This document shows positions 32,375 to 44,370 of a DNA stretch of 64,000 bases, one piece after another. Position 1 is the first letter of the stretch, and every line of letters starts with the position of its first letter. A model generated the notes under the pieces. The model was not told the origin of the DNA, did not search any database, and saw only the letters and a program-made list of their open reading frames with translations. The DNA is from a virus, in the IMG/VR virus record IMGVR_UViG_3300045988_107309, one strand, 5' to 3'. The translations under genes were made by a program, and so were the position numbers.

Positions 32375-32785
32375 ATGCCTACAAGTGGTTTTAGAGGTAT
32401 CAGTTATCCTTTCAGAATTGGACCTCAAGGTGGTGTAGTAATGTCAACCACAAGTGCTACAGACCCAACACATATTGTGGAAAGTCTGAGACAGATATTT
32501 GGAACTCATTACTTACAGAGAGTAATGGAAGCTGAAATCTATTCAGAACTTATCAATGTGGTGTTTGAACCGAATGATGAAACACTGCAAGCAATAGCAA
32601 AGACAAGAATCATGGACGCTATTGAAAGACTTGAGGATAGAGTAGAGTCTTCTGAGGACAATATTCAATTCACAGTAGAAACAACAGACAGAGGTAGCTT
32701 TCTCTTTGCTACCATAACTTTTAAAATTATCAAGTATGAGACTTGGTACACAGCAAAATTTGAGGTAGGTGAGGTAAATGAGTAG
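32375..32785 (+). CDS. baseplate wedge protein (GPW/gp25-like)
   Basis: GISYPFRIGPQGGV N-terminal motif; about 136 aa; upstream of baseplate J. Confidence 0.6.
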   Translation: MPTSGFRGISYPFRIGPQGGVVMSTTSATDPTHIVESLRQIFGTHYLQRVMEAEIYSELINVVFEPNDETLQAIAKTRIMDAIERLEDRVESSEDNIQFTVETTDRGSFLFATITFKIIKYETWYTAKFEVGEVNE

Positions 32786-34256
32786 AAAACCAACACAAGG
32801 TATTGATTACACAAGTAGAGACTATGAAGCATACAGAACCCTTTTAATACAGGAGTTACAGAAACGTATGCCGGAGTACACTGATACAAGCCAGACTGAC
32901 GCAGGTATTGTCATTATTGAGTGCCTTGCTAACGGTCTGGATATTTGTAGTTTATACAGTGATGTGATTGCAAATGACTGTTTCTTGCCTACCACACAGG
33001 ATAGAAGAATTGCGGTGTTGTTAGCAAGACAGTTAAGGTATATCGCAAAGAATCAAACAGCCAGTGTTATCCAACAGGTATTTGTTTTAGGTAATGTGAT
33101 GGACAGAGACATTATCATTCCTAAAGGTAGTGTTGTTCACACAGCCGAAAGCACTGATATGGTTATTGTTTATTTTGAGACTACAGATGACCTTATCATT
33201 CCTGCCGGAGAACTTGGTGATGAAAAGACAGAAGACGGTGAGTATAAGTATATGATTACTGTACAGCAAGGAACTTCTGTCAATGAAGACCTTTTAGGTA
33301 CTTCAAACGGTCAACCTTATCAGTCCTTTAAACTGAATTATCAAGAGGTGCTTACAGACTCTATTCAGTTGATGATTGATGAAGGTAATGGATTTGAGTT
33401 GTGGACTCAAGTGAACACCTTTATTGACAGTGATGAAACAAGTAAACACTACACTGTGATAGTGGACGAATTTGATAACTGCTATGTTGAGTTTGGTAGT
33501 GGTGCAAGGGGTAAAATTCCTGCTATCTTTGACAATGGTATTATTGCTTCATATAGAACTGGTGGAGGAACTATTGGTAACGTGAAAGCAAACACTATCA
33601 TTGAACTGTCAGAGAGTGTAGCTTATGTGGAGAAGACTTTTAACCCTTATCCACCTTTAGTACTCGGTCACGAAAAAGAAAGTATTGAGGAGATTAGAGA
33701 AAATGCTCCTGCCGCTTTTAGGACTCAAGACAGAGCAATCACAGCACAGGACTATGCAGACCTTTTAAGAATCAATTTCTATGAGGTGTTGTCTGCTAAA
33801 GGTGTTCCAGATGAAACCACAAAACTGAAAATGAATGTGTTCTATCTTATGAGACAAGATTATGAAATGACGGAGGAACTTCTGGAAAAGATTGCAGTGT
33901 TCTTTGACTCAAGAATTATTCCGGGAACTTCTTATCAGTTTAAAGACCATGAGGAGTACAAAGTTAATCTTACTGCTAACCTTATCATTGATGATGACTA
34001 TGACAAGGCTACTATTACAGACTATGTGGAAGACTATGTGAAGAACACTTTCTTTGCTTATGGAAACATGAAGTTTGACACTAAGTTTGCAAAGTCTGAA
34101 TTGGAGAGTCAAGTGAGAGAAACTTTTGCCGGAGTTGAGTCCTTTAGAATAATCTCCCCGGACAGTGATATAATCTCCCCGGATAGTGAAAGTAAGATTA
34201 TCACTTTAGGAACACTCACATTAAATGTAACAGGTGGTAAAGTGAAGGAGGTGTAG
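32778..34256 (+). CDS. baseplate J-like protein
   Basis: DYTSRDYEAYRTLLIQELQKRMPEYTDTSQTDAGIVIIECLA start typical of the Baseplate_J family; size and position. Confidence 0.7.
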   Translation: MSRKPTQGIDYTSRDYEAYRTLLIQELQKRMPEYTDTSQTDAGIVIIECLANGLDICSLYSDVIANDCFLPTTQDRRIAVLLARQLRYIAKNQTASVIQQVFVLGNVMDRDIIIPKGSVVHTAESTDMVIVYFETTDDLIIPAGELGDEKTEDGEYKYMITVQQGTSVNEDLLGTSNGQPYQSFKLNYQEVLTDSIQLMIDEGNGFELWTQVNTFIDSDETSKHYTVIVDEFDNCYVEFGSGARGKIPAIFDNGIIASYRTGGGTIGNVKANTIIELSESVAYVEKTFNPYPPLVLGHEKESIEEIRENAPAAFRTQDRAITAQDYADLLRINFYEVLSAKGVPDETTKLKMNVFYLMRQDYEMTEELLEKIAVFFDSRIIPGTSYQFKDHEEYKVNLTANLIIDDDYDKATITDYVEDYVKNTFFAYGNMKFDTKFAKSELESQVRETFAGVESFRIISPDSDIISPDSESKIITLGTLTLNVTGGKVKEV

Positions 34257-34259
34257 TAT

Positions 34260-35885
34260 ATGTCAAAAGTAATGGACAGCAAAACATTCAGTGGAAAATT
34301 ATATAATACACTTCCTGTTATGTACCACAATGCTGACAGTATGGTTGACTATGCCCTCAAGAGATATTTACAGGTGTTATCTGACGGAGGATATTCCTTT
34401 GTAGTAGATGAACTGAATGGTATCTTAAATCTGAATGACCCAGAGAGAACTCCGTCCGAAGTGTTAGGTATTCTCTTTGAGCAGTATGGTTTACCTCTGT
34501 TCAATGGTATTCCAGAAGTATATCTGAGAAAGTTACTTCCTATCCTCGGAGACCTGTATGCCAGAAAAGGTGCTACTACAGTTATTGAATACCTTACTTC
34601 TATTATTTCTGATGTAAAAACGGATATTGTGATTAGTCCAGATTTTTTGAATGACTATCACATTGACCTTAAACTGGAAATGGACTACGACCAGACAGGT
34701 GCAAGAGACTTACCAGATAGAGAACAACTCCTTAGAATTATTAAGGAGTTTTTGCCGTTCTTTATTGAGGTTACTATTGTCTTTGTGTATATGTTCTATG
34801 AGTCAGCAAAACTTCAAGGGAGAGAGAGTTTTGAGGACTATGTTACAGAAGTGAGAAGTGAGCATAGCAGACTTCTTAGTGGTAATAAAGAAGGACTGTT
34901 CCCCACTCTCAATAACTTTGATTTAGGACTTAACAAAAGTATTTATCTGAATGAGTCTTATTACTATGATGTAGAGGTAGACTGGTTTAAAGACCACATT
35001 CTTACACACATTCTTGAGACTGGAACTCTTAACAGAAGCAAGTCTTGTGAGTACTACACTGGAACTTTAAACAATCCGGTGAAAGTGTTGAACCAGAGTG
35101 TTATTCTGAATGAGTGTATGGATTCTGATGAACTGGTTTCCACTGACATTGTAATTAAGCCACAGTTGGATAAGGTTAATCTCAAGCCTATAGAGTTTGC
35201 AGAGAATACCATGACCGAAATTTTGGAGGAAGAGACTGGTGTTCCGTCTGTAGGTATTCCAGATGAATATAATGCCCGATTTAAGATAGGTGCTACATTT
35301 GGTACAGCAGTATTTGGTAATGATGACTTCATTGTAGAAGTTGAAGAGTATATGGATAAGGTCACTTTCATTCAAAGTGATTCCGCAACTCTTAAACATG
35401 ACTCTTCTACAGGACTCTTTAAGGGTGTTCTTAACAATTACACTATCCGAATGAATGATAACCTGTACACTAATGAGGGTGTTGATACTGATGATGTGGT
35501 TGACAGAGTAAGTCTTAGTGATGTTGCTGAACTTGGTGCTACAGAGAAGAAGACACTGTACATGGTTCTCAATCCATTCAGTTATTATGCTACACTCAAC
35601 ACTGGTTTTCTTCTCAATAAAGACCTCATTACAAATGAGAGTCATACTGATATTGGTGAAGTAGTCTGTGCGGAGAATTTTGAAGATGTTCCAATGGACT
35701 CCTATTCTGACACAGAGACTTTCAGTTCCAGTGAGAAAGATGAAGAAATCATGGCATTTACTAATTTAGGTGTCTGTGCTTTAAATCACATGATATTGAA
35801 TAGTATTCCGGCTTATGATAAAATCATTGTGGGTGGAAAAGAAACAGTAGTGTACCCAACACAATACGGTTGTATATCAACATAA
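34260..35885 (+). CDS. baseplate/tail fibre-attachment protein (gpI-like)
   Basis: position after baseplate J; N-terminal LYNTLPVMYHNAD...LKRYLQVL pattern. Confidence 0.45.
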   Translation: MSKVMDSKTFSGKLYNTLPVMYHNADSMVDYALKRYLQVLSDGGYSFVVDELNGILNLNDPERTPSEVLGILFEQYGLPLFNGIPEVYLRKLLPILGDLYARKGATTVIEYLTSIISDVKTDIVISPDFLNDYHIDLKLEMDYDQTGARDLPDREQLLRIIKEFLPFFIEVTIVFVYMFYESAKLQGRESFEDYVTEVRSEHSRLLSGNKEGLFPTLNNFDLGLNKSIYLNESYYYDVEVDWFKDHILTHILETGTLNRSKSCEYYTGTLNNPVKVLNQSVILNECMDSDELVSTDIVIKPQLDKVNLKPIEFAENTMTEILEEETGVPSVGIPDEYNARFKIGATFGTAVFGNDDFIVEVEEYMDKVTFIQSDSATLKHDSSTGLFKGVLNNYTIRMNDNLYTNEGVDTDDVVDRVSLSDVAELGATEKKTLYMVLNPFSYYATLNTGFLLNKDLITNESHTDIGEVVCAENFEDVPMDSYSDTETFSSSEKDEEIMAFTNLGVCALNHMILNSIPAYDKIIVGGKETVVYPTQYGCIST

Positions 35886-35900
35886 AGGAGGTAAAAGTAA

Positions 35901-36782
35901 ATGGCTTATAAGAGAATAGTAACACAAGACGGTGTTACAGTAATGAATAAAGACCTGTATGACAATCTGCAAGATGGTATTGATGAATCTAAACAGGCAG
36001 TGCAAGACCTTGAAGACAGTGTAGAGGAAAGTTTTAAAGAAGTAGACACTAAGTTGCAAGATTCTGGTGGTATAAAGTTTGATGGTGAAAGAGATATGAT
36101 TATGATTAAGAATCCTTTCACTGGTGAATGGATTGACTGGCAAAGTTCTGGGAAGATTATACTCCCTTCAACTATTACCATTACTACAAATACTCTGGGT
36201 GGTAAACAAGTGACTTGTTTAATAGGAGGTAAAACTTATACCTCAGAGTTCTCTATCATTAGTGGTACTCAAGGTGTTGCAGTGTTTACTGTCTACGAAG
36301 ATGGTGAAGCAGTGATTACCTGTGAAAGCTATACTACTTCTGTCACTATACAGGAAAAAGGTGGAGGAACTTATTCTTTAAATTTAGAAGAAGTAACAGA
36401 ACTTTTATTGTGGGATGGAGAAAATTTTCATAATGGTGCTGAATGGTATAATGGACCAATATGGGGAATAAGATTGGAAACTAATGATTTGCAAAATAAG
36501 AAATTTATTATTCAGACTGGTTCTTCTACAATATCCAATGTTAATTTTGAGTTATTTTTATATAAAGGACCTAATGGATTTATTACTTATTTTGCAGAAG
36601 GAAAATATAGCACCTCTGAAATAACTAATGTTCAAGTATGGTCTAATACAAGATATGAAATATCCATAGAGAAGTGTGTTGAACTTAAAGGAGTAACATC
36701 TGATGGTTTAACCTCATTCTTATTGGGAATGACAGATGAAGTTGACCTTAGAAGGTATGTTACATCTGTTTCGTTAGTGTAA
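35901..36782 (+). CDS. tail fibre protein with compositionally distinct C-terminal domain
   Basis: position; N-terminal coiled segment. GC drops from about 43% to about 25% after roughly 36370. Confidence 0.45.
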   Translation: MAYKRIVTQDGVTVMNKDLYDNLQDGIDESKQAVQDLEDSVEESFKEVDTKLQDSGGIKFDGERDMIMIKNPFTGEWIDWQSSGKIILPSTITITTNTLGGKQVTCLIGGKTYTSEFSIISGTQGVAVFTVYEDGEAVITCESYTTSVTIQEKGGGTYSLNLEEVTELLLWDGENFHNGAEWYNGPIWGIRLETNDLQNKKFIIQTGSSTISNVNFELFLYKGPNGFITYFAEGKYSTSEITNVQVWSNTRYEISIEKCVELKGVTSDGLTSFLLGMTDEVDLRRYVTSVSLV

Positions 36783-36807
36783 AGTTTACAGTTGCTAAAA
36801 GCAAGAA

Positions 36808-36843
36808 AAGATGGTATTCTTAATGGAAGAGTATCATCTTTTC
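36808..36843 (+). terminator. rho-independent terminator
   Basis: 14-bp stem AAGATGGTATTCTT(36808-36821)/AAGAGTATCATCTT(36827-36840) with two G-U pairs, then TTTTC. Confidence 0.7.
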
Positions 36844-36876
36844 AAACTCTAAAATATAAACAGGAGGTAATACAAA

Positions 36877-37458
36877 ATGAAAGAAAACGCAAAAGTCTAT
36901 CAAAAGGACTCTGAGAACCTTGTCTTGAATATGGGTAGTGAGTGTCTTTCTGATGTTCACATGACTGGTGAAATCATTGACACAATCCATTACAAAGACG
37001 GTAGAGTAGAGAAGAGAGTTGGACACAACCTTGTAGTCAACAACTTCTTGAAACTGGTAATGAGTCTTTTAAAGGGCGAAACTGGTTACAAAGGTATTCA
37101 GTACTGGGCTGTTGGTAGTGGTGCTTCAAGTTGGGATAACAGTATGCCGAGTCCTACTATTGATTCCACAAAACTGACTGCTGAGTTAGGAAGAGTGGCA
37201 ATCACAGCAGGTGAGATTAAATTCCTCACACCAGAGTATGAGGTGTCCAGTGTTCCGACAAATATCATTCAGATTACACACACTTTCGGTCCGTCTGATT
37301 GTAATGGTGTGTGGAGAGAGTTTGGTATCTTCGGTGGTAATGCTACTGCTACAAAAGATTCCGGTCTGATGATTAACAAACGTCACCATGCAATTATCAC
37401 TAAGACCGAGGAAATGACGATTGAGCGTGTAATGCGTTTCACTCTGAATTTAGTATAA
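36877..37458 (+). CDS. hypothetical structural protein upstream of the DGR target
   Basis: RBS CAGGAGGTAA; no motif recognised. Confidence 0.45.
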   Translation: MKENAKVYQKDSENLVLNMGSECLSDVHMTGEIIDTIHYKDGRVEKRVGHNLVVNNFLKLVMSLLKGETGYKGIQYWAVGSGASSWDNSMPSPTIDSTKLTAELGRVAITAGEIKFLTPEYEVSSVPTNIIQITHTFGPSDCNGVWREFGIFGGNATATKDSGLMINKRHHAIITKTEEMTIERVMRFTLNLV

Positions 37459-37477
37459 TTAAAGGAGGAAATATAGA

Positions 37478-39370
37478 ATGGCAAGTTTTGATAAGTATTC
37501 AAACTACAAAGACAATGCCGGAGTGTCTGGTGTTGTTTTTGGTGCTGAAAAACCTATCCTTGAAGTAGAAATGAATGAGGTGCAGGAAGTTCAGAAGAGT
37601 ATGCTCCGCAAAGCCATTAAGAATCTTATGGGTGATGGTATCACTGACCTCAGTAAGATTGTGTATGAGGGTGGAGCAGTAAAAGTAAAAGAGGGTTGTG
37701 CTTTAGCAGTTGATGGTTACATGATTGAAAGCACTGGACTCTCTCTTACAGCTTCAAGCGGAACTGTTTATCTTCAAGTGTGGGAAGAGACAGCTACTTA
37801 CAGTGACACACTGAAAGAGGAAGGAAATCAGCAGGATAGTGTTACTGTAGCAAACTGGTTTAAAGACAATCGTTCTGACGCAGAGACTTCCAGACGTAAG
37901 GTTGTTAAATACAATCTGGCTTCTTCTACAGACAGTAATAAACATAATCTGGCTATTGCAAGTGTAGCTGATGGTGTTATGACAAGACTGTGTAAGGAGA
38001 TTAGCTTTAGCAGTCTTTCCAGTCAAGTGATTGACCTTAGAGTACAGATGGGTACTTACGGTGAGGGTGTTCTGGGTGTTGAAGTAGACCTTGAGAATAA
38101 CTCTGTTGTAAGAACAGGTGACAATCAGTACTGGTCTCCGGGAGCAGATTATGACAACTCTCCTATCTATGGTGGTAGAAAAAGATGTGTTGTAAAAGAT
38201 GACGGAACGATTGTAGCTTTCTATGGTGAAGAGGGTTACACAGAGACAGGTGCTTTGACTGTAGCAGTAGGAGAAAATGTAGTAGGTACTAAAGTACAGT
38301 GTATGGTTATGCAACCTGCTTTCTACTACAAGAGAATCCCTCTCAAACTTGAGAAACAGGTTGATGACACCTATCAAGTTAAAGGCTATCACATGACTAA
38401 GTGGGTTGACCTTATCAGTCCTGTAAGCAGAGACGGATTTAGTCTTCACCCGGCATTTAAGAAAGGTGACACAGAGATTGCTTACTATCTGATTGGAGAG
38501 AATGATGGCTGTCTTGAGAACTCAAGCGGTTATGATATGAATGACAACACTGTTACTCTTGGTTCTTCTCCTTACAGTGGTATTAAGATGGCTTCTATTG
38601 CAGGTGCTAAACCTGCCAGTGGTGCTTCTGCCGGAAGTACTAAGAACAACAGTCTTACAAGAGACGCAGTAAGAAAAGTGTGTGCAAACAGAGGAACAGG
38701 TTGGCAACAGCTTGACTTCACTATTGCAAGTGCAGAGCAGATGTTATTCGTGGTAGAGTATTCTACTTTTAACATTCAAGCTATCACTACTTTCGGCAGT
38801 GGTGTTACAGATATGCCTTATGTAACTAATGTAAATGACTCCATTCCTAACCCGACTAACACAGCACTGGGTAATGGAAGTGGTAAGATTGAAGTTACTT
38901 ACACACACTCCAATGGAACAGAGTACACAAAGTATGTTCCTGTTTACAGAGGTGTTAAGAATCCTTTCGGTAACATCTGGAAGTTTGTTGATGGTTTCCT
39001 TAGAAAACATTCTGCCGGAACTGATAAGAACGAAGCATTTTGGCAGGACGGAAGTAAAGCCTTTTCTGACGCTATTGCAGACTATATTGCCTGTGGATTT
39101 AGCTGTGCTACAGCAGAGGGTTATGTTAAAGCATTTGGTTATGATGAAAATTGTGACTGGTGCTATATGACCTCTTTAACAGGTGGAGACAGTAGCAAAC
39201 CTGTAGGTGATTACTATTGGGTTAATATGAGTAGTAATAACCTCTATATTGCCCTATTGGGTGCGTATTGGGATAATGGTGCGCAGGCTGGGTTGTTCTA
39301 TTGGACTCTGCATGATGTGGCTTCTTATCGTGATTGTATTATCGGCGGCCGCTTGTGCAGAAAAGCGTAA
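37478..39370 (+). CDS. DGR target (variable) protein, probable receptor-binding tail fibre with C-terminal C-type-lectin-fold variable region
   Basis: the last 40 codons contain the VR, and the matching TR codons are AAT-rich (TLLGTNWNNGTNTELFYWNLNNVASNRNCNISDH). The C-terminal ...IIGGRLCRKA ending is typical of CLec-type DGR targets. Confidence 0.8.
   Translation: MASFDKYSNYKDNAGVSGVVFGAEKPILEVEMNEVQEVQKSMLRKAIKNLMGDGITDLSKIVYEGGAVKVKEGCALAVDGYMIESTGLSLTASSGTVYLQVWEETATYSDTLKEEGNQQDSVTVANWFKDNRSDAETSRRKVVKYNLASSTDSNKHNLAIASVADGVMTRLCKEISFSSLSSQVIDLRVQMGTYGEGVLGVEVDLENNSVVRTGDNQYWSPGADYDNSPIYGGRKRCVVKDDGTIVAFYGEEGYTETGALTVAVGENVVGTKVQCMVMQPAFYYKRIPLKLEKQVDDTYQVKGYHMTKWVDLISPVSRDGFSLHPAFKKGDTEIAYYLIGENDGCLENSSGYDMNDNTVTLGSSPYSGIKMASIAGAKPASGASAGSTKNNSLTRDAVRKVCANRGTGWQQLDFTIASAEQMLFVVEYSTFNIQAITTFGSGVTDMPYVTNVNDSIPNPTNTALGNGSGKIEVTYTHSNGTEYTKYVPVYRGVKNPFGNIWKFVDGFLRKHSAGTDKNEAFWQDGSKAFSDAIADYIACGFSCATAEGYVKAFGYDENCDWCYMTSLTGGDSSKPVGDYYWVNMSSNNLYIALLGAYWDNGAQAGLFYWTLHDVASYRDCIIGGRLCRKA
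39249..39354 (+). repeat. DGR variable repeat (VR)
   Basis: 106-nt gap-free alignment with TR (offset 336 nt); 18 mismatches, 17 at TR adenines. Confidence 0.85.
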
Positions 39371-39407
39371 TCACTAAAAATATTGAAGAAAGGAGAAGCT
39401 ATTCTTC

Positions 39408-39436
39408 TTTACAAAACACTTCATAAAGGTTATAAT
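39408..39436 (+). promoter_or_regulatory. promoter for the TR-RT transcript
   Basis: TTTACA (39408-39413), 17 nt, TATAAT (39431-39436), 38 nt after the target stop codon. Confidence 0.55.
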
Positions 39437-39584
39437 GTAGTCGGTGAATGTAACGAAACACTACACCACCAAAACAGGTAAAGATTTGGGTTATAAGCGG
39501 TCAAGACATTACACAGATATTCTCTTGCCACCAACAGTACACATGGAATACTTGGACACTCAGTAATTTGGGTGTTCCAAGTAT

Positions 39585-39690
39585 TTACCCTATTGGGTAC
39601 GAATTGGAATAATGGTACGAATACTGAGTTGTTCTATTGGAATCTGAATAATGTGGCTTCTAATCGTAATTGTAATATCAGCGACCACTT
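39585..39690 (+). repeat. DGR template repeat (TR)
   Basis: non-coding copy of the VR containing about 31 adenines, 17 of them substituted in the VR; located 230 nt upstream of the RT ATG. Confidence 0.85.
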
Positions 39691-39919
39691 CACGGCACTG
39701 TACTCAGTTTCGGAAGTGTTTACTTTTGAAATAAATTAAAATCCGTGTAACTTCTTTACCTTACCTCTCTAACGTGGGTTAGGTCATTAGTGTTAAATGA
39801 CACAAGTATGATGGTAGAACATATAGTGTTTCACGACAGCAATAAGTCTTGTTGGTAGCTGATGAAAGATTGTACACCTTTATAAGCGTTTGAAGATTAG
39901 ACTTTGGAGTACATGGAAA

Positions 39920-41071
39920 ATGAAGCGTCACCTGTACCCTTTAGACCCTGTGACTGGGAAAGAAGATAGGACGCTTACAATATGGGAGAGAATTTGTTCC
40001 ATAGAAAACTTGAGACTTGCACACAAAAATGCGAGTAAAGGTAAACATTGGTACAAAGAGGTTCGTGACTTTGATAAAGACCCAGAGAAGTACTTGAAAC
40101 AGATACAGGATATGTTAGTGTCAAGGACTTACTCACCACTTCCTTATGAGAGATTCACAAGAAAAGAACGTGGTAAAGAAAGAGTTATCTACAAGTCACG
40201 ATACTTCCCAGAAAGAGTTATACAGTGGGCTGTCTTACAGGTTATATCTCCTATCCTCTTGAGACAACTTATCTATGACACATACTCGGCAATTCCAGAT
40301 AGAGGTATTCATCTGGCATTTAAAAGAGTTAGGAGTGATATACAGAGTGATGTTGAAGGAACGAAGTACTGTTTAAAGATGGACGTTAAGAAATTCTATC
40401 CGTCAATAGACAGAGAAATTCTTCTGAATGATTATCACAGGATATTTAAAGATGAAGGACTACTGTGGTATCTCGATTTAAACATTACAAAGTCTCCCGA
40501 TACTGGTATTCCGATTGGTAACTACTTATCACAATTCAGTGGCAACTTTTATTTATCACCTTTCGACCACTGGATAAAAGAAGTTAAGGGTGTGAAGTAC
40601 TATTACAGATATATGGACGATATTGTTATCCTCCATTCCTCAAAAGAGTACTTGCAAGAACTAAAATGGGAGATTATAAAATACATGAGGGAAGAAAGAC
40701 ACCTTACAATCAAGGACAATTATCAAGTATTCCCTGTAGCAAAAAGAGGAGTAGATTTTGTCGGGTACAGAGTGTTCCCGGATTTTGTGTTATTAAGAGC
40801 GTCTACTGCTAAGAACATGAAGTCAAAGATGGCTAAGATTCTCAGAAAAGTAGAAAGCGGAACAGAAATGTCTTACTCTGATTATTGTTGTATCAATTCT
40901 TATAAAGGTTGGCTGTCATATTGCAATAGTTACAGATTGTACACTAAGTACTTTAAACCTTTAGAGAAACCTGTGGAGGAGTATTACAATAAACACTTAA
41001 AGAATGGAGGAAAGAAAGCCAATGAAAACAATGGAAAATGTTCAGTCAACAGTAAAACCAAAGGAAGTTGA
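39920..41071 (+). CDS. DGR-type reverse transcriptase
   Basis: RT motifs including YRYMDDIVIL (YxDD) and the DGR-typical IGNYLSQFSGNFYL (SQ motif). ATG 39920 is the first ATG; the track ORF starts at TTG 39890. Confidence 0.85.
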   Translation: MKRHLYPLDPVTGKEDRTLTIWERICSIENLRLAHKNASKGKHWYKEVRDFDKDPEKYLKQIQDMLVSRTYSPLPYERFTRKERGKERVIYKSRYFPERVIQWAVLQVISPILLRQLIYDTYSAIPDRGIHLAFKRVRSDIQSDVEGTKYCLKMDVKKFYPSIDREILLNDYHRIFKDEGLLWYLDLNITKSPDTGIPIGNYLSQFSGNFYLSPFDHWIKEVKGVKYYYRYMDDIVILHSSKEYLQELKWEIIKYMREERHLTIKDNYQVFPVAKRGVDFVGYRVFPDFVLLRASTAKNMKSKMAKILRKVESGTEMSYSDYCCINSYKGWLSYCNSYRLYTKYFKPLEKPVEEYYNKHLKNGGKKANENNGKCSVNSKTKGS

Positions 41072-41315
41072 GTATGATGGCAACCATGTGTATGTGAATA
41101 CCAACGTCAAAGAAGTTCCAGAGAGTGAAAGAGTGGCTGAAAAAGAGCAGTTGGAAGACGGTCAAGAATTAGTTCCTCTGTACTCTTACACTGTGCAGGA
41201 GTATGAGAAAGACGAGTTTTTAACCGCACTATCCGCAGGGCAGGTTACTCTTAATGAGAGAGCAACTGCTATGGAGGATATGATTTTGGAAATGAGTGAG
41301 GTTGTCTATGCTTAG
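41022..41315 (+). CDS. hypothetical acidic protein
   Basis: ATG 41022 after GGAGGAAAG; overlaps the RT 3' end. Confidence 0.4.
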   Translation: MKTMENVQSTVKPKEVEYDGNHVYVNTNVKEVPESERVAEKEQLEDGQELVPLYSYTVQEYEKDEFLTALSAGQVTLNERATAMEDMILEMSEVVYA

Positions 41316-41367
41316 TGTATTAGACCGACTTCGCCTTTTCATAACTTTTGGAAAGGAGGGAGACACC

Positions 41368-41511
41368 ATGATTGCAATGCTTTGGGCACAGAGAATTATG
41401 AATGGCAAGAAGACTTATGATGAAGTTCCAAGACTGTTAAAAGAGCAGGTTAAGGAAATTCTGATTGAGAGTGGTGTAGAGTTTCTGATTACAGAAACAC
41501 CTGCACAGTAA
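41368..41511 (+). CDS. small phage protein (CD1375/XkdX-like), paralogue 1
   Basis: ATG 41368 after GGAGGGAG; MIAMLWAQRIMNGKKTYDEVPRLLKEQVKEIL. Confidence 0.5.
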   Translation: MIAMLWAQRIMNGKKTYDEVPRLLKEQVKEILIESGVEFLITETPAQ

Positions 41512-41541
41512 CACCACAACAGCATAAGGAGGTAAATACCT

Positions 41542-41679
41542 ATGAAGACTATTTCAATCCTTTGGGCTGATAAGATTATCGCAGGAGACAGGACTTATGC
41601 TCAAGTTCCTGCACAGCTCAAAGATGAAGTAAAACAGGCTTTGACAGAGAAAGGTCATGCCAAACTTGCTAAAGCCTAA
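41542..41679 (+). CDS. small phage protein (CD1375/XkdX-like), paralogue 2
   Basis: 45-aa ORF not in the track; AGGAGGTAAATACC RBS; ILWADKIIAGDRTYAQVPAQLKDEVKQAL aligns with paralogue 1. Confidence 0.5.
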   Translation: MKTISILWADKIIAGDRTYAQVPAQLKDEVKQALTEKGHAKLAKA

Positions 41680-41685
41680 GTGCAT

Positions 41686-41723
41686 AAAGACCTTTGAATT
41701 TTAATAATTCAGAGGTCTTTTTG
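41686..41723 (+). terminator. rho-independent terminator ending the structural/DGR operon
   Basis: 14-bp stem AAAGACCTTTGAAT(41686-41699)/ATTCAGAGGTCTTT(41707-41720), then TTGTG. Confidence 0.8.
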
Positions 41724-41786
41724 TGTAGACATAGCTTTCTTAATGTGGTATTATTTAATAAGCAACTTAAAGAGAGGAGAACTGTG

Positions 41787-42389
41787 ATGGATAAATCTTT
41801 GTTAGATTTACTTTCAGAAGTAACTGGTGTTCAGTTACTCATGGCTATTCTCTTGATAATTGCTCTTATTGTTCTGGCTCTAACACAAAAGCAGAAAATA
41901 TCGAAGTATTTAAACAAGTGGAGAAAGACTAAAAACGAAGAAGAAGACTTTCATGCTCTGGTTTATGAATTGAAAAACTCTATGATAGAGTTGGGGAAGA
42001 AGATTGAGGAAAATCGTACTGAAAGAGAAAATGAGAGAACTCACGACAGAGAGGACTCAAGAAAAATTCGTAAAGAAATGTATGAGGTAATGAACAGACA
42101 GTCACAACAGATTGAAAAACAGTCTGGACAGATTGAGGAATTAAAGAACATTACCCTCGAAATTCAAAAGAAAAATTCAGAAACAAAAAGGGCAGAAATC
42201 AAAGAGAAGATTGAGCGTATTTACAGGGAGTGCCACCCGGCTATGTGTTGTACAGATATGCAGTTTGAGACATTAAAAGACCTCATAGAACAGTATGAGA
42301 AACATGATGGGGATAACTCTTTTGTACATAGCACTGTACAGAAAGAAATGTACTCATGGCAGATTATCAAAGAAATAAAGAGTCTTTAA
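41787..42389 (+). CDS. membrane-anchored coiled-coil protein (lysis module)
   Basis: ATG 41787 after GAGAGGAGAA; the track N-terminus spans the terminator; N-terminal TM LLMAILLIIALIVLAL. Confidence 0.5.
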   Translation: MDKSLLDLLSEVTGVQLLMAILLIIALIVLALTQKQKISKYLNKWRKTKNEEEDFHALVYELKNSMIELGKKIEENRTERENERTHDREDSRKIRKEMYEVMNRQSQQIEKQSGQIEELKNITLEIQKKNSETKRAEIKEKIERIYRECHPAMCCTDMQFETLKDLIEQYEKHDGDNSFVHSTVQKEMYSWQIIKEIKSL

Positions 42390-42423
42390 GACCTTTATAA
42401 ATTAAGAAAAGGAGGTAACTATC

Positions 42424-42783
42424 ATGGCAAATGTAATGGAAATGATTATTCAGTATTCTTCGGTGATTTTAGCAATTATCGCAGGTATCTGTATTCTTGT
42501 TTCTGTCATCACCGAATTTACTAAGGAGATTGGTTTCTTGAATAAGATTCCGACTACCTTACAGGTACTCTTCCTGTCCTTAGTAATTTGCATTGTGGGA
42601 TTCTTCGCTTATATCTCTTATGCGAACATCACTTTTGTCTGGTACTATTTAGTGGCTGTTATTTTTGCAAGTTTCATTGTAGCCATTATCTGTGCTAAAG
42701 GGTGGGATTATTTTATGGACATTGTGAAGAGATATTATAGAAAAGAACTGCCGGGAGATACAGAAGAGAAACCGACTGAATAA
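42424..42783 (+). CDS. holin
   Basis: 119 aa, three hydrophobic helices, charged C-terminus, immediately upstream of the endolysin. Confidence 0.65.
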   Translation: MANVMEMIIQYSSVILAIIAGICILVSVITEFTKEIGFLNKIPTTLQVLFLSLVICIVGFFAYISYANITFVWYYLVAVIFASFIVAIICAKGWDYFMDIVKRYYRKELPGDTEEKPTE

Positions 42784-42854
42784 TAAATACAGACACATGA
42801 GGGCAGACTTAACGGTTTGCCCTTTTGTAAATACAAATAAAGGAGGATAACACA

Positions 42855-44294
42855 TTGACAAAACAGGAATTTATTCAACAAATTGCAAAGTATGTCAAAA
42901 AGTATGCTAACTCTTATGGAATCAAGGTACACAGTCCTATTATTGCACAGGCAATCTTAGAAAGTGGTTGGGGTGAGAGTAGACTTGCTTCTCAATACCA
43001 TAACTACTTTGGTTTAAAGTGTGGTACTAAGTGGACTGGAAAGAGTGTGAACATGACTACTCAAGAAGAGTATGAACCGGGAACACTTACCACAATCAAA
43101 GACAATTTCCGTGTGTATGATAACATGGAAGAGGGTGTTAAAGGTTACTTTGAGTTCATTCAGTTAGCGAGATACCAGAATCTTAAAGGTATCACTGACC
43201 CGAAAAAGTATCTTGAGACAATCAAGGCTGATGGGTATGCAACAAGTAGTTCCTATGTAACTAACACTTACAAATTGGTGGAACAGTATAACTTAACTCA
43301 GTATGACACAGAAGGAGGAAGTAGTGTTATGGGTAAGACAGCACAAGACATTTTGAACGTAATGAGAAGTTGGCTTGGATTTAGTGAGTCCAATGGTAAA
43401 TTCAAACAGATTATTGACCTGTACAACAGTGTGAAACCTTTGCCGAGAGGTTATGCTGTAAAGTACACAGACGAGTGGTGTGACACTTGTGTTTCAGCCG
43501 CAGGAATTAAAGCAGGGTGTTCTGATTTAATTAGTAGAGAGTGTGGTTGTGAACAGCACGTTAAAATCTTCAAAGAAAAGGGAATCTGGATTGAAGATGG
43601 TACAATTACACCTAAACCGGGTGATGTTATTCTTTACAACTGGGATGACGCAACTCAGCCTAATGATGGTTATTCAGACCACATTGGTTATGTAGAAGCT
43701 GTTTCTGGCAATACTATTACTGTCATTGAGGGTAACAAGAATGAAGCAGTAGCAAGACGTTCCATTCCTGTAGGTTGGGGTTATATCAGAGGTTATGCAA
43801 GACCTAAGTATGCGTCTGGTGGTTCTTCTGTTACTCCTACACCTCCGAAAAAGACTATTGATGAAATCGCTCAAGATGTTATCAAGGGTGTTTATGGTAA
43901 TGGTGACGCTCGTAGAAATGCTTTAAAAGCACTTGGTTATGACCCAGACGAGGTACAAATCAGAGTTAATGAGATTCTCAAAGGTAACTCTTCTAAACCG
44001 TCAATGAGTATTGTAGAAGTAGCTAAAAAAGTTATTGCCGGAGAATACGGTAATGGTTCTGAACGCAGAAAGAAACTTGCTTCTGAGGGATATGACCCTG
44101 ATGAAGTACAGGCAGAAGTAAACAGACAGTTAGAGAACAAAGGTACTTCTGTTCAGTATTACACTGTACAGCCGGGAGATAATCTCACTGTGATTGCTAA
44201 AAAGTATGGCACTACAGTTAATAAACTTGTTAGCTTGAATGGTATTGCTAATAAGAACCTTATCTATGTAGGTCAGAAACTCAGAGTTAAATAA
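42855..44294 (+). CDS. multidomain endolysin (GH73 glucosaminidase + CHAP + 2x CW_7 + LysM)
   Basis: [26 protein letters not shown] (GH73); [12 protein letters not shown]...SDHIGYV (CHAP Cys/His); two [24 protein letters not shown]-type repeats; C-terminal [29 protein letters not shown] (LysM); TTG start after AAGGAGGA. Confidence 0.85.
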
Positions 44295-44370
44295 GGAGCG
44301 TGGCTCTGCATTACCTCTGTAATAATAGTTATTTAATATATTATATAATTAAATAGTTATTTATATTAAA

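Follow-up and report, generated by a model that had tools for sequence, protein, structure and literature searches.

Here, we analysed a stretch of 64,000 nt from the virus record IMGVR_UViG_3300045988_107309 (hereafter the window; all positions are in its numbering, on the (+) strand as presented), in which a sequence-only reading had proposed a diversity-generating retroelement (DGR) at 37478-41071. From 5′ to 3′, the locus consists of a target gene that carries a variable repeat (VR) close to its 3′ end, a template repeat (TR), a spacer and the gene of a reverse transcriptase (RT) (Table 1). According to the coordinates, the first 64 kb of ENA scaffold ZELL14-1_SAMEA2467036 scaffold_255 (85,916 bp), read on the opposite strand, make up the window, and the DGR region is identical to locus L083 of that scaffold. 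We are confident that these elements form an active DGR without accessory gene (target with VR, TR and RT), located where the tail module ends in a contractile-tailed phage of ~86 kb, with a Gram-positive bacterium of the human gut as host. The proposed action on the C-terminus of a tail-fibre-like protein is borne out by the adenine bias of the repeats, the class of the RT, the fold of the target and the natural variation of the VR.

Repeat pair, natural variation and reverse transcriptase

A repeat finder returned the VR/TR pair as the top and largest direct repeat of the region (106 nt, ungapped, 83% identity, spacing 336). Base-by-base comparison revealed 18 mismatches, 17 of which hit an adenine of the TR (hypergeometric p = 2.1e-10 for 31 A among the 106 nt), in full agreement with the ungapped alignment and the adenine-specific differences described earlier from the sequence; re-translation also reproduced the earlier translations of both repeats exactly. 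All 17 A-site changes lie in codon position 1 or 2 of the open reading frame (ORF) 37478-39370, and ten AAT codons of the TR are among the affected codons. The VR ends 16 nt ahead of the target stop codon. An A-biased TR/VR pattern was also found by self-comparison in ~55 of 80 more distant RT-related loci, and neither a second VR nor any other TR-like sequence was detected in the 64-kb window or in the 8.6 kb beyond it.

Seven relatives from IMG/VR, ENA and NCBI (RT identity 81-99%) have TRs with only 0-3 nt changed relative to the window TR. Their VRs are all distinct and show 14-21 mismatches to their own TR, with 14-21 of these at A sites. In three relatives (L001-L003), non-A changes of the TR reappear in the cognate VR, which demonstrates copying from TR to VR. 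Between lineages, the TRs are 97-99% identical, the VRs 82-89% and the flanking genes 75-83%. For a set of 37 distinct full-length target proteins (at least 95% identical), Shannon entropy was 1.69 bits at codons with an A at TR positions 1 or 2, 0.11 at the remaining VR codons and 0.044 across residues 1-590. Twelve codons encode 4-13 amino-acid types each, and thirteen variant pairs combine identical residues 1-590 with different VRs. The clearest case is contig L086 from another ENA gut assembly. Compared with window 32479-44300 (11,823 nt), it has a single 1-nt indel and 14 substitutions; every substitution falls within the 106-nt VR, 13 of them at A-templated positions. Of two further contigs, L087 shows 58 substitutions over 11.6 kb and L088 shows 57 over 9.7 kb, and each also has two 1-nt insertions. 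In both, 15 of the substitutions fall in the VR, 14 at A sites and one at a site where the TR base is kept in these contigs and not in the window. Hundreds of related contigs are present in gut metagenomes. VR heterogeneity confined to A-templated positions, as the sequence-only reading had anticipated, was hence found across samples. We conclude that information is transferred unidirectionally from TR to VR and that the element has been active in nature recently.

The ORF downstream of the TR contains both RT motifs named in the earlier reading, YMDD at 40610-40621 and the LSQ block (IGNYLSQ) at 40514-40534. Its best match in the PDB is 8ub7_A, a 328-residue reverse transcriptase, followed by group II intron RTs (E 2.5e-13) and retron RTs (E 1e-10). 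We take 8ub7_A to be bRT of the Bordetella phage DGR, since its length and residue numbering agree with the bRT literature. Alignment to 8ub7_A showed that counterparts of bRT R74 and I181 are present in the window RT. Arg74 and Ile181 of bRT are the two residues shown to promote adenine mutagenesis, and the DGR signature (I/V/L)GxxxSQ stands where other RTs have QGxxxSP (PMC7826257). These sequence features support an assignment of the window RT to the DGR class. Related RTs occur in metagenome-assembled genomes (MAGs) of many phyla, the nearest (58% identity) in a Clostridiales MAG. The RT of locus L082 (L082:5376-6528; MAG GCA_905216595.1) was split by gene calling into two ORFs (76 and 317 aa), and is either frameshifted and possibly inactivated or affected by an assembly error.

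Some details of the VRs deserve separate mention. The lone non-A mismatch of the window pair is a T>G at 39622 in the TR (39286 in the VR). Non-A changes are rare in VRs and mostly T>G (5/5 in the aligned repeats of the close family; 15/33 over 41 TR/VR pairs), and L006 has one extra T>C immediately beyond its aligned repeat end. The T>G sites (window 39262 and 39286; residues 593, 594, 606 and 614; loci L003, L004 and L081) translate into L593R, L594W, L606W and V614G, and may reflect a secondary misincorporation signature of the window RT (dC opposite template U) or selection. The TR adenines for 39251, 39263 and 39291 (residues 592, 596 and 605) read G in (almost) every VR, both among the 37 variants and in all relatives. 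At these residues the TR encodes Thr/Thr/Glu and the protein always has Ala/Ala/Gly, with Gly605 invariant family-wide; the fixed-G pattern extends to distant relatives, e.g. with Ser or Arg in the TR and Gly in the VR. It is puzzling that adenine is retained in the TR at sites where the majority of outcomes must be lethal. Within the P0001 cluster (residues 591-630), two patterns of sharing were seen. In one, the 3′ portion of the VR, with the non-templated A615V, is common to several variants and the 5′ portion is not, which suggests that VR alleles have recombined; in the other, the 5′ portion is common and the 3′ portion varies, as fits 3′-anchored partial cDNA tracts.

Table 1 Features of the DGR locus in window numbering
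Feature	Position	Strand	Evidence and remarks
DGR target gene, tail-fibre-like protein (630 aa)	37478..39370	+	phrog_5302 'tail protein' 4e-74; phrog_10588
C-terminal domain of the target, predicted FGE-type C-type-lectin fold bearing the VR (residues 225-630)	38150..39367	+	AlphaFold2 model, Foldseek, profile
Variable repeat (VR)	39249..39354	+	Hypervariable codons: residues 597, 599, 600, 603, 608, 610, 612, 613, 617, 619, 621, 622 (39266-39343)
IMH-like GC-rich VR 3′ end, GGCGGCCGCTTG	39344..39355	+	Near-invariant in relatives; always three A-position differences from TR
Conserved hairpin after the target stop codon	39385..39410	+	-10.3 kcal/mol; 3′ arm overlaps the -35 hexamer
Sigma-70-like promoter, TTTACA-17-TATAAT (11/12), for the TR-spacer-RT transcript	39408..39436	+	Best promoter-like site in 36500-42000
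Invariant 19-nt block in the leader of the DGR RNA, TTGCCACCAACAGTACACA	39525..39543	+	Lineage comparison
Strong RNA hairpin abutting the TR 5′ end; candidate cDNA-synthesis stop	39546..39586	+	-21.5 to -22.6 kcal/mol, four lineages
Template repeat (TR)	39585..39690	+	31 A, mostly in AAT codons
IMH*-like TR end, AGCGACCAC	39680..39688	+	Counterpart of the VR end
Hairpin of the last TR bases with spacer nt 16-28; candidate template:primer duplex	39686..39718	+	Helix 1 of the consensus fold
Spacer of the DGR RNA (229 nt)	39691..39919	+	TTACC (39761-39765)...GGTAG (39813-39817) stem, then AACAUA; YUGGUAG motif 39848-39859
DGR reverse transcriptase (383 aa)	39920..41071	+	Pfam RVT_1 4.6e-17; phrog_1423 'reverse transcriptase' 2e-117; 8ub7_A E 7e-34
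Intrinsic-terminator-like hairpin closing the tail/DGR/XkdX-like gene block	41686..41723	+	Hairpin 41686-41720, -22.7 kcal/mol, then UUUUGUGU

Fold and role of the target protein

Searches with the target protein found nothing in Pfam or NCBIfam, and a single-sequence search of the PDB was also empty. A profile of the C-terminal 260 residues, built from 21 diverse DGR targets, had TaqVP (5vf4_A) as its sole significant match (E 1.7e-4), with VR aligned to VR. TaqVP is a DGR variable protein whose C-type-lectin (CLec) fold has been confirmed by crystallography (PMC6328139). AlphaFold2, supplied with 114 sequences from three sub-families, modelled residues 225-630 with a mean pLDDT of 89.3 and a pTM of 0.92. 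When this model was compared with the PDB by Foldseek, TaqVP (5vf4, E 1e-8) and five BPP-1 Mtd variants (1yu0-4, E 3e-3 to 9e-3) were retrieved, and no other entry fell below E 0.1. The C-type-lectin fold that had been predicted for the C-terminus is thus supported by the profile match and by a model (pLDDT 89) that has TaqVP and Mtd as its only significant PDB neighbours, and the modelled domain would serve as a scaffold that presents the variable residues. Among viral models (BFVD), the top matches (TMq 0.87, E 1e-40) came from uncultured gut phages and were named 'tail collar fiber protein'; further matches comprise crAss-like tail fibres, one TvpA-annotated protein and one sulfatase-modifying-factor-like protein.

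Gene position and the PHROG and BFVD annotations point to a tail-fibre role of the target. Homologues of the protein contain PF12571 (phage tail-collar fibre), one of them goes by the name 'tail collar fiber protein', and the cultured-phage homologue g27 of Yersinia phage fEV-1 is annotated 'putative tail fiber protein'. It is unlikely that the target is instead another virion-surface or adhesion protein, e.g. a binder of mucus or host glycans, through which the DGR would tune something besides host range. Such a role would fit the missing Pfam match and the fact that some gut-phage DGRs act on Hoc-like decoration proteins or tentaclins (PMC5883640, PMC10743442). However, the gene directly follows the baseplate/tail genes and precedes XkdX-like, holin and lysin genes, its PHROG category is 'tail', its structural neighbours bear tail collar fibre or tail fibre annotations, and its domain order with a C-terminal CLec is unlike that of tentaclins.

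Accessory gene, RNA elements and proposed mechanism

Just 214 nt separate the target stop codon from the TR, and ~55 of 80 RT-related loci share a compact layout, in which the VR starts 170-610 nt 5′ of the TR start and the TR lies ~60-250 nt 5′ of the RT. The locus belongs to architecture A1 in the classification of Wu et al. 2018, in which TR and RT form a core on one strand, the target lies upstream and avd, HRDC, MSL and CH1 genes are missing. No avd gene was found beside TR and RT in the window, the arrangement that defines architecture B, and given its absence the element is not a Bordetella-type cassette. Architecture A (without accessory gene) makes up 29% of the 372 DGRs in that study and A1 75 of the 372; the authors saw no avd elsewhere in genomes of this kind and suggested that retrohoming proceeds there without Avd (PMC5758913). 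By analogy, the window DGR would work independently of Avd as well. ORF 41004-41315 (97/103 aa, acidic, pI 4.35) was considered as a CH1-like accessory and rejected: it is shorter than CH1, is present only in close phage relatives and two others, and co-occurs with XkdX-like phage genes while being absent from distant DGRs.

In the Bordetella ribonucleoprotein, the 3′ end of the TR pairs with the spacer strand that primes cDNA synthesis, and the 'cPRT Stop' consists of a duplex of upstream RNA and spacer, followed by a short stem-loop and adenosines (10.1101/2023.10.23.563531). The RNA of the window has a conserved hairpin at either end of the TR. The 5′ hairpin (39546-39586) has z-scores of -5.1 to -7.6, with none of 200 shuffles equally stable; its upper stem and loop vary by lineage with pairing retained through compensatory changes, and by analogy it is a candidate for the stop at the TR 5′ end. 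The 3′ hairpin (39686-39718; -13.5 to -14.9 kcal/mol, z -2 to -3.2) may represent the cis-priming duplex, as judged from the Bordetella particle (10.1101/2023.10.23.563531). A pairing of 39527-39537 in the leader with 39848-39859 in the spacer is weakly supported (z -1 to -2.8).

Avd-less relatives have a different arrangement. In ~30 of 44 of them, a spacer strand of 12-17 nt could base-pair with the bases immediately 5′ of the TR (z -2.7 to -8.5), and the duplex sequences vary by lineage in a covarying manner. Directly after this strand, the same relatives have a hairpin of 4 bp (YRCC-NNUU-GGYR) and then a run of adenines, for example AAAACA, so that the set of elements resembles the Bordetella cPRT Stop. 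This conserved hairpin begins 22-59 nt into the spacer (vs Sp71 in Bordetella) and hence leaves little space for the 31-nt Avd-binding stem-loop of Bordetella. Within the homologous TACC...GGTA stem of the window (39761-39817), which has an A-rich tail, an insertion of ~47 nt occupies the place of the tetraloop of relatives. An unconstrained RNA duplex search of long flanks was uninformative. Most spacers of the clade (L008-L077; window 39848-39859) have a YUGGUAG(G/C) or UUAGUAG motif ~25-45 nt 3′ of the tetraloop hairpin, for which no conserved pairing partner was found across the clade and which may be an RT contact. The consensus fold also pairs the invariant spacer block CCGUGUA... (39743-39754) with the invariant GGAGUACAUGG (39906-39916), which holds the ribosome-binding site of the RT. 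RNA folding might control RT translation in this way; as every pair is invariant, the comparison neither supports nor refutes the pairing.

On the DNA level, both promoter hexamers are invariant in all four lineages, in which the surrounding intergenic DNA is 57-79% identical. The VR end GGCGGCCGC is fixed in relatives and always unlike the AGCGACCAC of the TR, with residues 623-625 reading GGR vs SDH in the TR. In analogy to Bordetella, the two sequences would correspond to the initiation of mutagenic homing (IMH) site and its counterpart IMH* (PMC5758913). A conserved GC-rich inverted repeat was not found directly downstream of the VR. The IMH-like end includes an 8-bp palindrome, GCGGCCGC at 39345-39352, which is invariant in relatives except for L003 (GCGGCCAC). 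A small hairpin CGCTT/AAGCG at the VR end was dropped as it is absent from relatives, and the conserved hairpin after the target stop codon is a candidate for a weak terminator or a target-site DNA structure. A 40-aa ORF (39444-39566) and a 55-aa ORF across the TR were regarded as non-coding, given that conservation is lowest in the intergenic region.

Following this argumentation, the promoter would drive an RNA composed of leader, TR, spacer and RT message. The RT would copy the TR to cDNA, probably cis-primed from the spacer strand paired to the TR 3′ end, and would misincorporate opposite template adenines. The cDNA would then replace the VR at the 3′ end of the target gene, anchored at the GC-rich, IMH-like GGCGGCCGC; since the TR does not have this anchor, information would flow from TR to VR only. 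As a consequence, about twelve codons of the C-type-lectin domain (mostly AAT in the TR) would be randomised with the scaffold codons kept fixed, and the outcome would be phage variants of differing binding specificity. The priming, stop and IMH roles in this scheme are assigned by analogy. We further propose, tentatively and as one possibility, that the RT lineage of the window performs cis-primed adenine-mutagenic retrohoming with RT and RNA alone, without Avd, and that the cPRT Stop was kept by most of its members and the RNA re-wired in the subfamily of the window. The re-wiring would consist of a local 18-bp hairpin as TR 5′ boundary and the ~47-nt insertion in the tetraloop hairpin.

Several points weigh against the reading of the locus as an active DGR without accessory gene. 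No avd gene was found: PF05635 and HRDC are absent from the 99 ORFs of 75-200 aa on both strands of the window (Pfam scan), and no avd is present in the precomputed Pfam annotation of the 8.6 kb that adjoin the window on the scaffold. This search covers 72.6 of the ~86 kb of the scaffold, with ~13 kb of the phage and the host genome outside it. Avd is described as essential for the Bordetella DGR (PMC5758913, PMC6182149), the sole DGR dissected biochemically, yet none was found here. The stop duplex of upstream RNA and spacer is undetectable in the subfamily of the window (z about 0). Covariation in the spacer is weak, with compensatory changes in 4 of 61 pairs, and merely suggestive given that 19 of 500 shuffles attain that count. 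The variation was in every case seen between assembled contigs of different samples, not among reads of a single population. The adenines of residues 592, 596 and 605, if inside the copied tract, imply strong selection against most retrohoming products. Finally, receptor binding and tropism switching through the target are putative, as suggested by gene position, annotation and analogy.

The first of these points could be met by an Avd-like or other accessory factor that acts in trans from a dispersed gene, either in the unseen part of the phage or in the host, which would turn the element into a canonical Avd-dependent DGR. We regard this as improbable, even though Bordetella needs Avd, the scaffold was inspected in part and avd genes are so poorly conserved that they could evade Pfam. 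The domain searches of the window ORFs and of the next 8.6 kb were negative, an avd gene would not fit into the compact VR-TR-RT layout common to the RT clade, the early hairpin in most relatives leaves little space for the Avd-binding stem-loop, and Wu et al. saw no distal avd in such genomes (PMC5758913).

Remaining alternatives, neighbouring genes and related systems

Two other explanations concern the element as a whole. It is very unlikely to be a relic with old A-biased differences that no longer works in this genome: RT ORF, TR, promoter and IMH-like end of the window are all intact, L086 matches over 11.8 kb with its 14 substitutions all in the VR, and the thirteen variant pairs are identical outside the VR. 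What could be read as signs of decay are the possible frameshift in the RT of L082 and the seven to nine of the 17 window A-site differences that are fixed across relatives.

With regard to RT class, the window RT scores far under the curated cut-offs of the NCBIfam group II, retron, Drt2 and Drt3a models (TIGR04416: 91 bits vs 300; retron St85: 56 vs 235; Drt3a: 63 vs 200). An Rfam scan of 36000-43000 (E up to 1) gave no matches and thus no group II intron or retron RNA, and PADLOC reported generic RT matches only. Together with 8ub7 as best PDB match and the IGNYLSQ motif, these scores speak against a group II or retron RT, in line with the class given in the sequence-only reading. An RT of another class (group II intron, retron or defence-associated) next to an ordinary duplication under diversifying selection can practically be dismissed, as the weak matches to generic group II, Drt3a, retron and UG models stand against a DGR RT as best structural-database match and IGxxxSQ instead of QGxxxSP, and as point mutation plus selection leave the adenine specificity, the codon-position bias, the TR invariance and the mirrored TR changes unexplained.

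Upstream of the target lie a baseplate-J gene (32778-34256) and other tail-module ORFs, and the phage has contractile-tail genes. Downstream of target and RT follow XkdX/CD1375-like genes, a holin and an endolysin; the domains of the endolysin (Glucosaminidase, CHAP, CW_7 and LysM) point to a Gram-positive host. Megablast found no match to the element in deposited phage genomes, and the best protein match among GenBank phages is 35% (Clostridium phage CS266P3). The indel of L086 (window 36463; ORF 35901-36782; L086:3423-4305) splits a 293-aa ORF of the tail module into 194 and 116 aa. ORF 41004-41315 (phrog_18126) overlaps the 3′ end of the RT by 68 nt and precedes two tandem small CD1375/XkdX-like genes at 41368-41511 and 41542-41679 (PF23792, phrog_1382). 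On the same scaffold beyond the end of the window (L084:10644-20552), there are genes for a UvrD-like helicase, ThyX, the anaerobic ribonucleotide reductase NrdD, SpoVS and a Tad2-like (anti-Thoeris) protein, as well as PTPS and radical-SAM genes suggestive of 7-deazaguanine DNA modification. Terminators had been proposed on both sides of the element. Both hairpins exist, and the downstream one resembles an intrinsic terminator; the upstream one (36805-36843, -20.7 kcal/mol) is merely a hairpin without a clean U tail, and a consensus terminator scan flagged neither.

Compared with known systems, the DGR of Bordetella phage BPP-1 (mtd-avd-TR-brt) is likewise phage-encoded and hits a C-terminal C-type-lectin domain, although the target of the window is tail-fibre-like by annotation and resembles BPP-1 Mtd at the fold level alone (E 3e-3). 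Both have a TR rich in AAY codons, mutagenesis specific to A, the order VR, TR, spacer, RT, and an RT with IGxxxSQ and the counterparts of R74 and I181. The GC-rich VR 3′ end and its TR counterpart in the window fit the pattern of IMH and IMH* in BPP-1. In contrast to BPP-1, the window has no detected avd, a spacer of 229 nt vs ~140 nt, a duplex at the TR 5′ end that seems to be a local hairpin rather than a long-range avd:Sp duplex, and an RT of 383 aa vs 328 aa with ~40 extra C-terminal residues. The A1 DGRs of Wu et al. 2018 (NAR 46:11; PMC5758913) share the TR-RT core, the upstream target and the missing accessory gene, whereas the accessory of their CH1 DGRs (160-169 aa, acidic) has no counterpart in the window.

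The closest solved structure to the target domain is that of TaqVP from a Thermus aquaticus prophage (PDB 5VF4; Foldseek E 1e-8, TM ~0.5), with the same type of formylglycine-generating-enzyme (FGE)-like CLec fold and the VR at the extreme C-terminus. Unlike the target, to which it is 13% identical, TaqVP is a single-domain protein from a cassette with Avd; the window protein has an extra N-terminal part of ~225 residues and is located in a tail module. DGRs from phages that infect Faecalibacterium and further Firmicutes of the gut (Cornuault et al. 2018, PMC5883640), together with the gut viral DGR clades described by Roux et al. 2021 (PMC8144416), also come from the human gut and from Gram-positive hosts; they have TR/VR of 100-135 bp, tail or FGE-like targets and VR variability in sequence data, and several are without detectable Avd. 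The phage of the window differs from these by its size of ~86 kb, its own DNA polymerase and the lack of any nucleotide match to deposited phages.

The DGR of the window joins a well-catalogued kind (PMC8144416, PMC5758913), and its wider value is modest, since tens of thousands of DGRs have already been catalogued; only the avd-less architecture and the re-wired flanking RNA go beyond routine. It nevertheless represents a well-documented, naturally active DGR in an abundant uncultured gut phage, with dozens of VR alleles over human samples, and is thus a useful case of hypervariation of a putative receptor-binding protein in the gut virome. The comparative RNA data, i.e. the stop-like element across avd-less relatives and the re-wired form in the phage of the window, supply concrete constructs for testing. 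If RT and its own RNA indeed suffice, the lineage would provide a minimal two-component DGR, which would be attractive for engineering and could allow simpler DGR-based tools for directed evolution.

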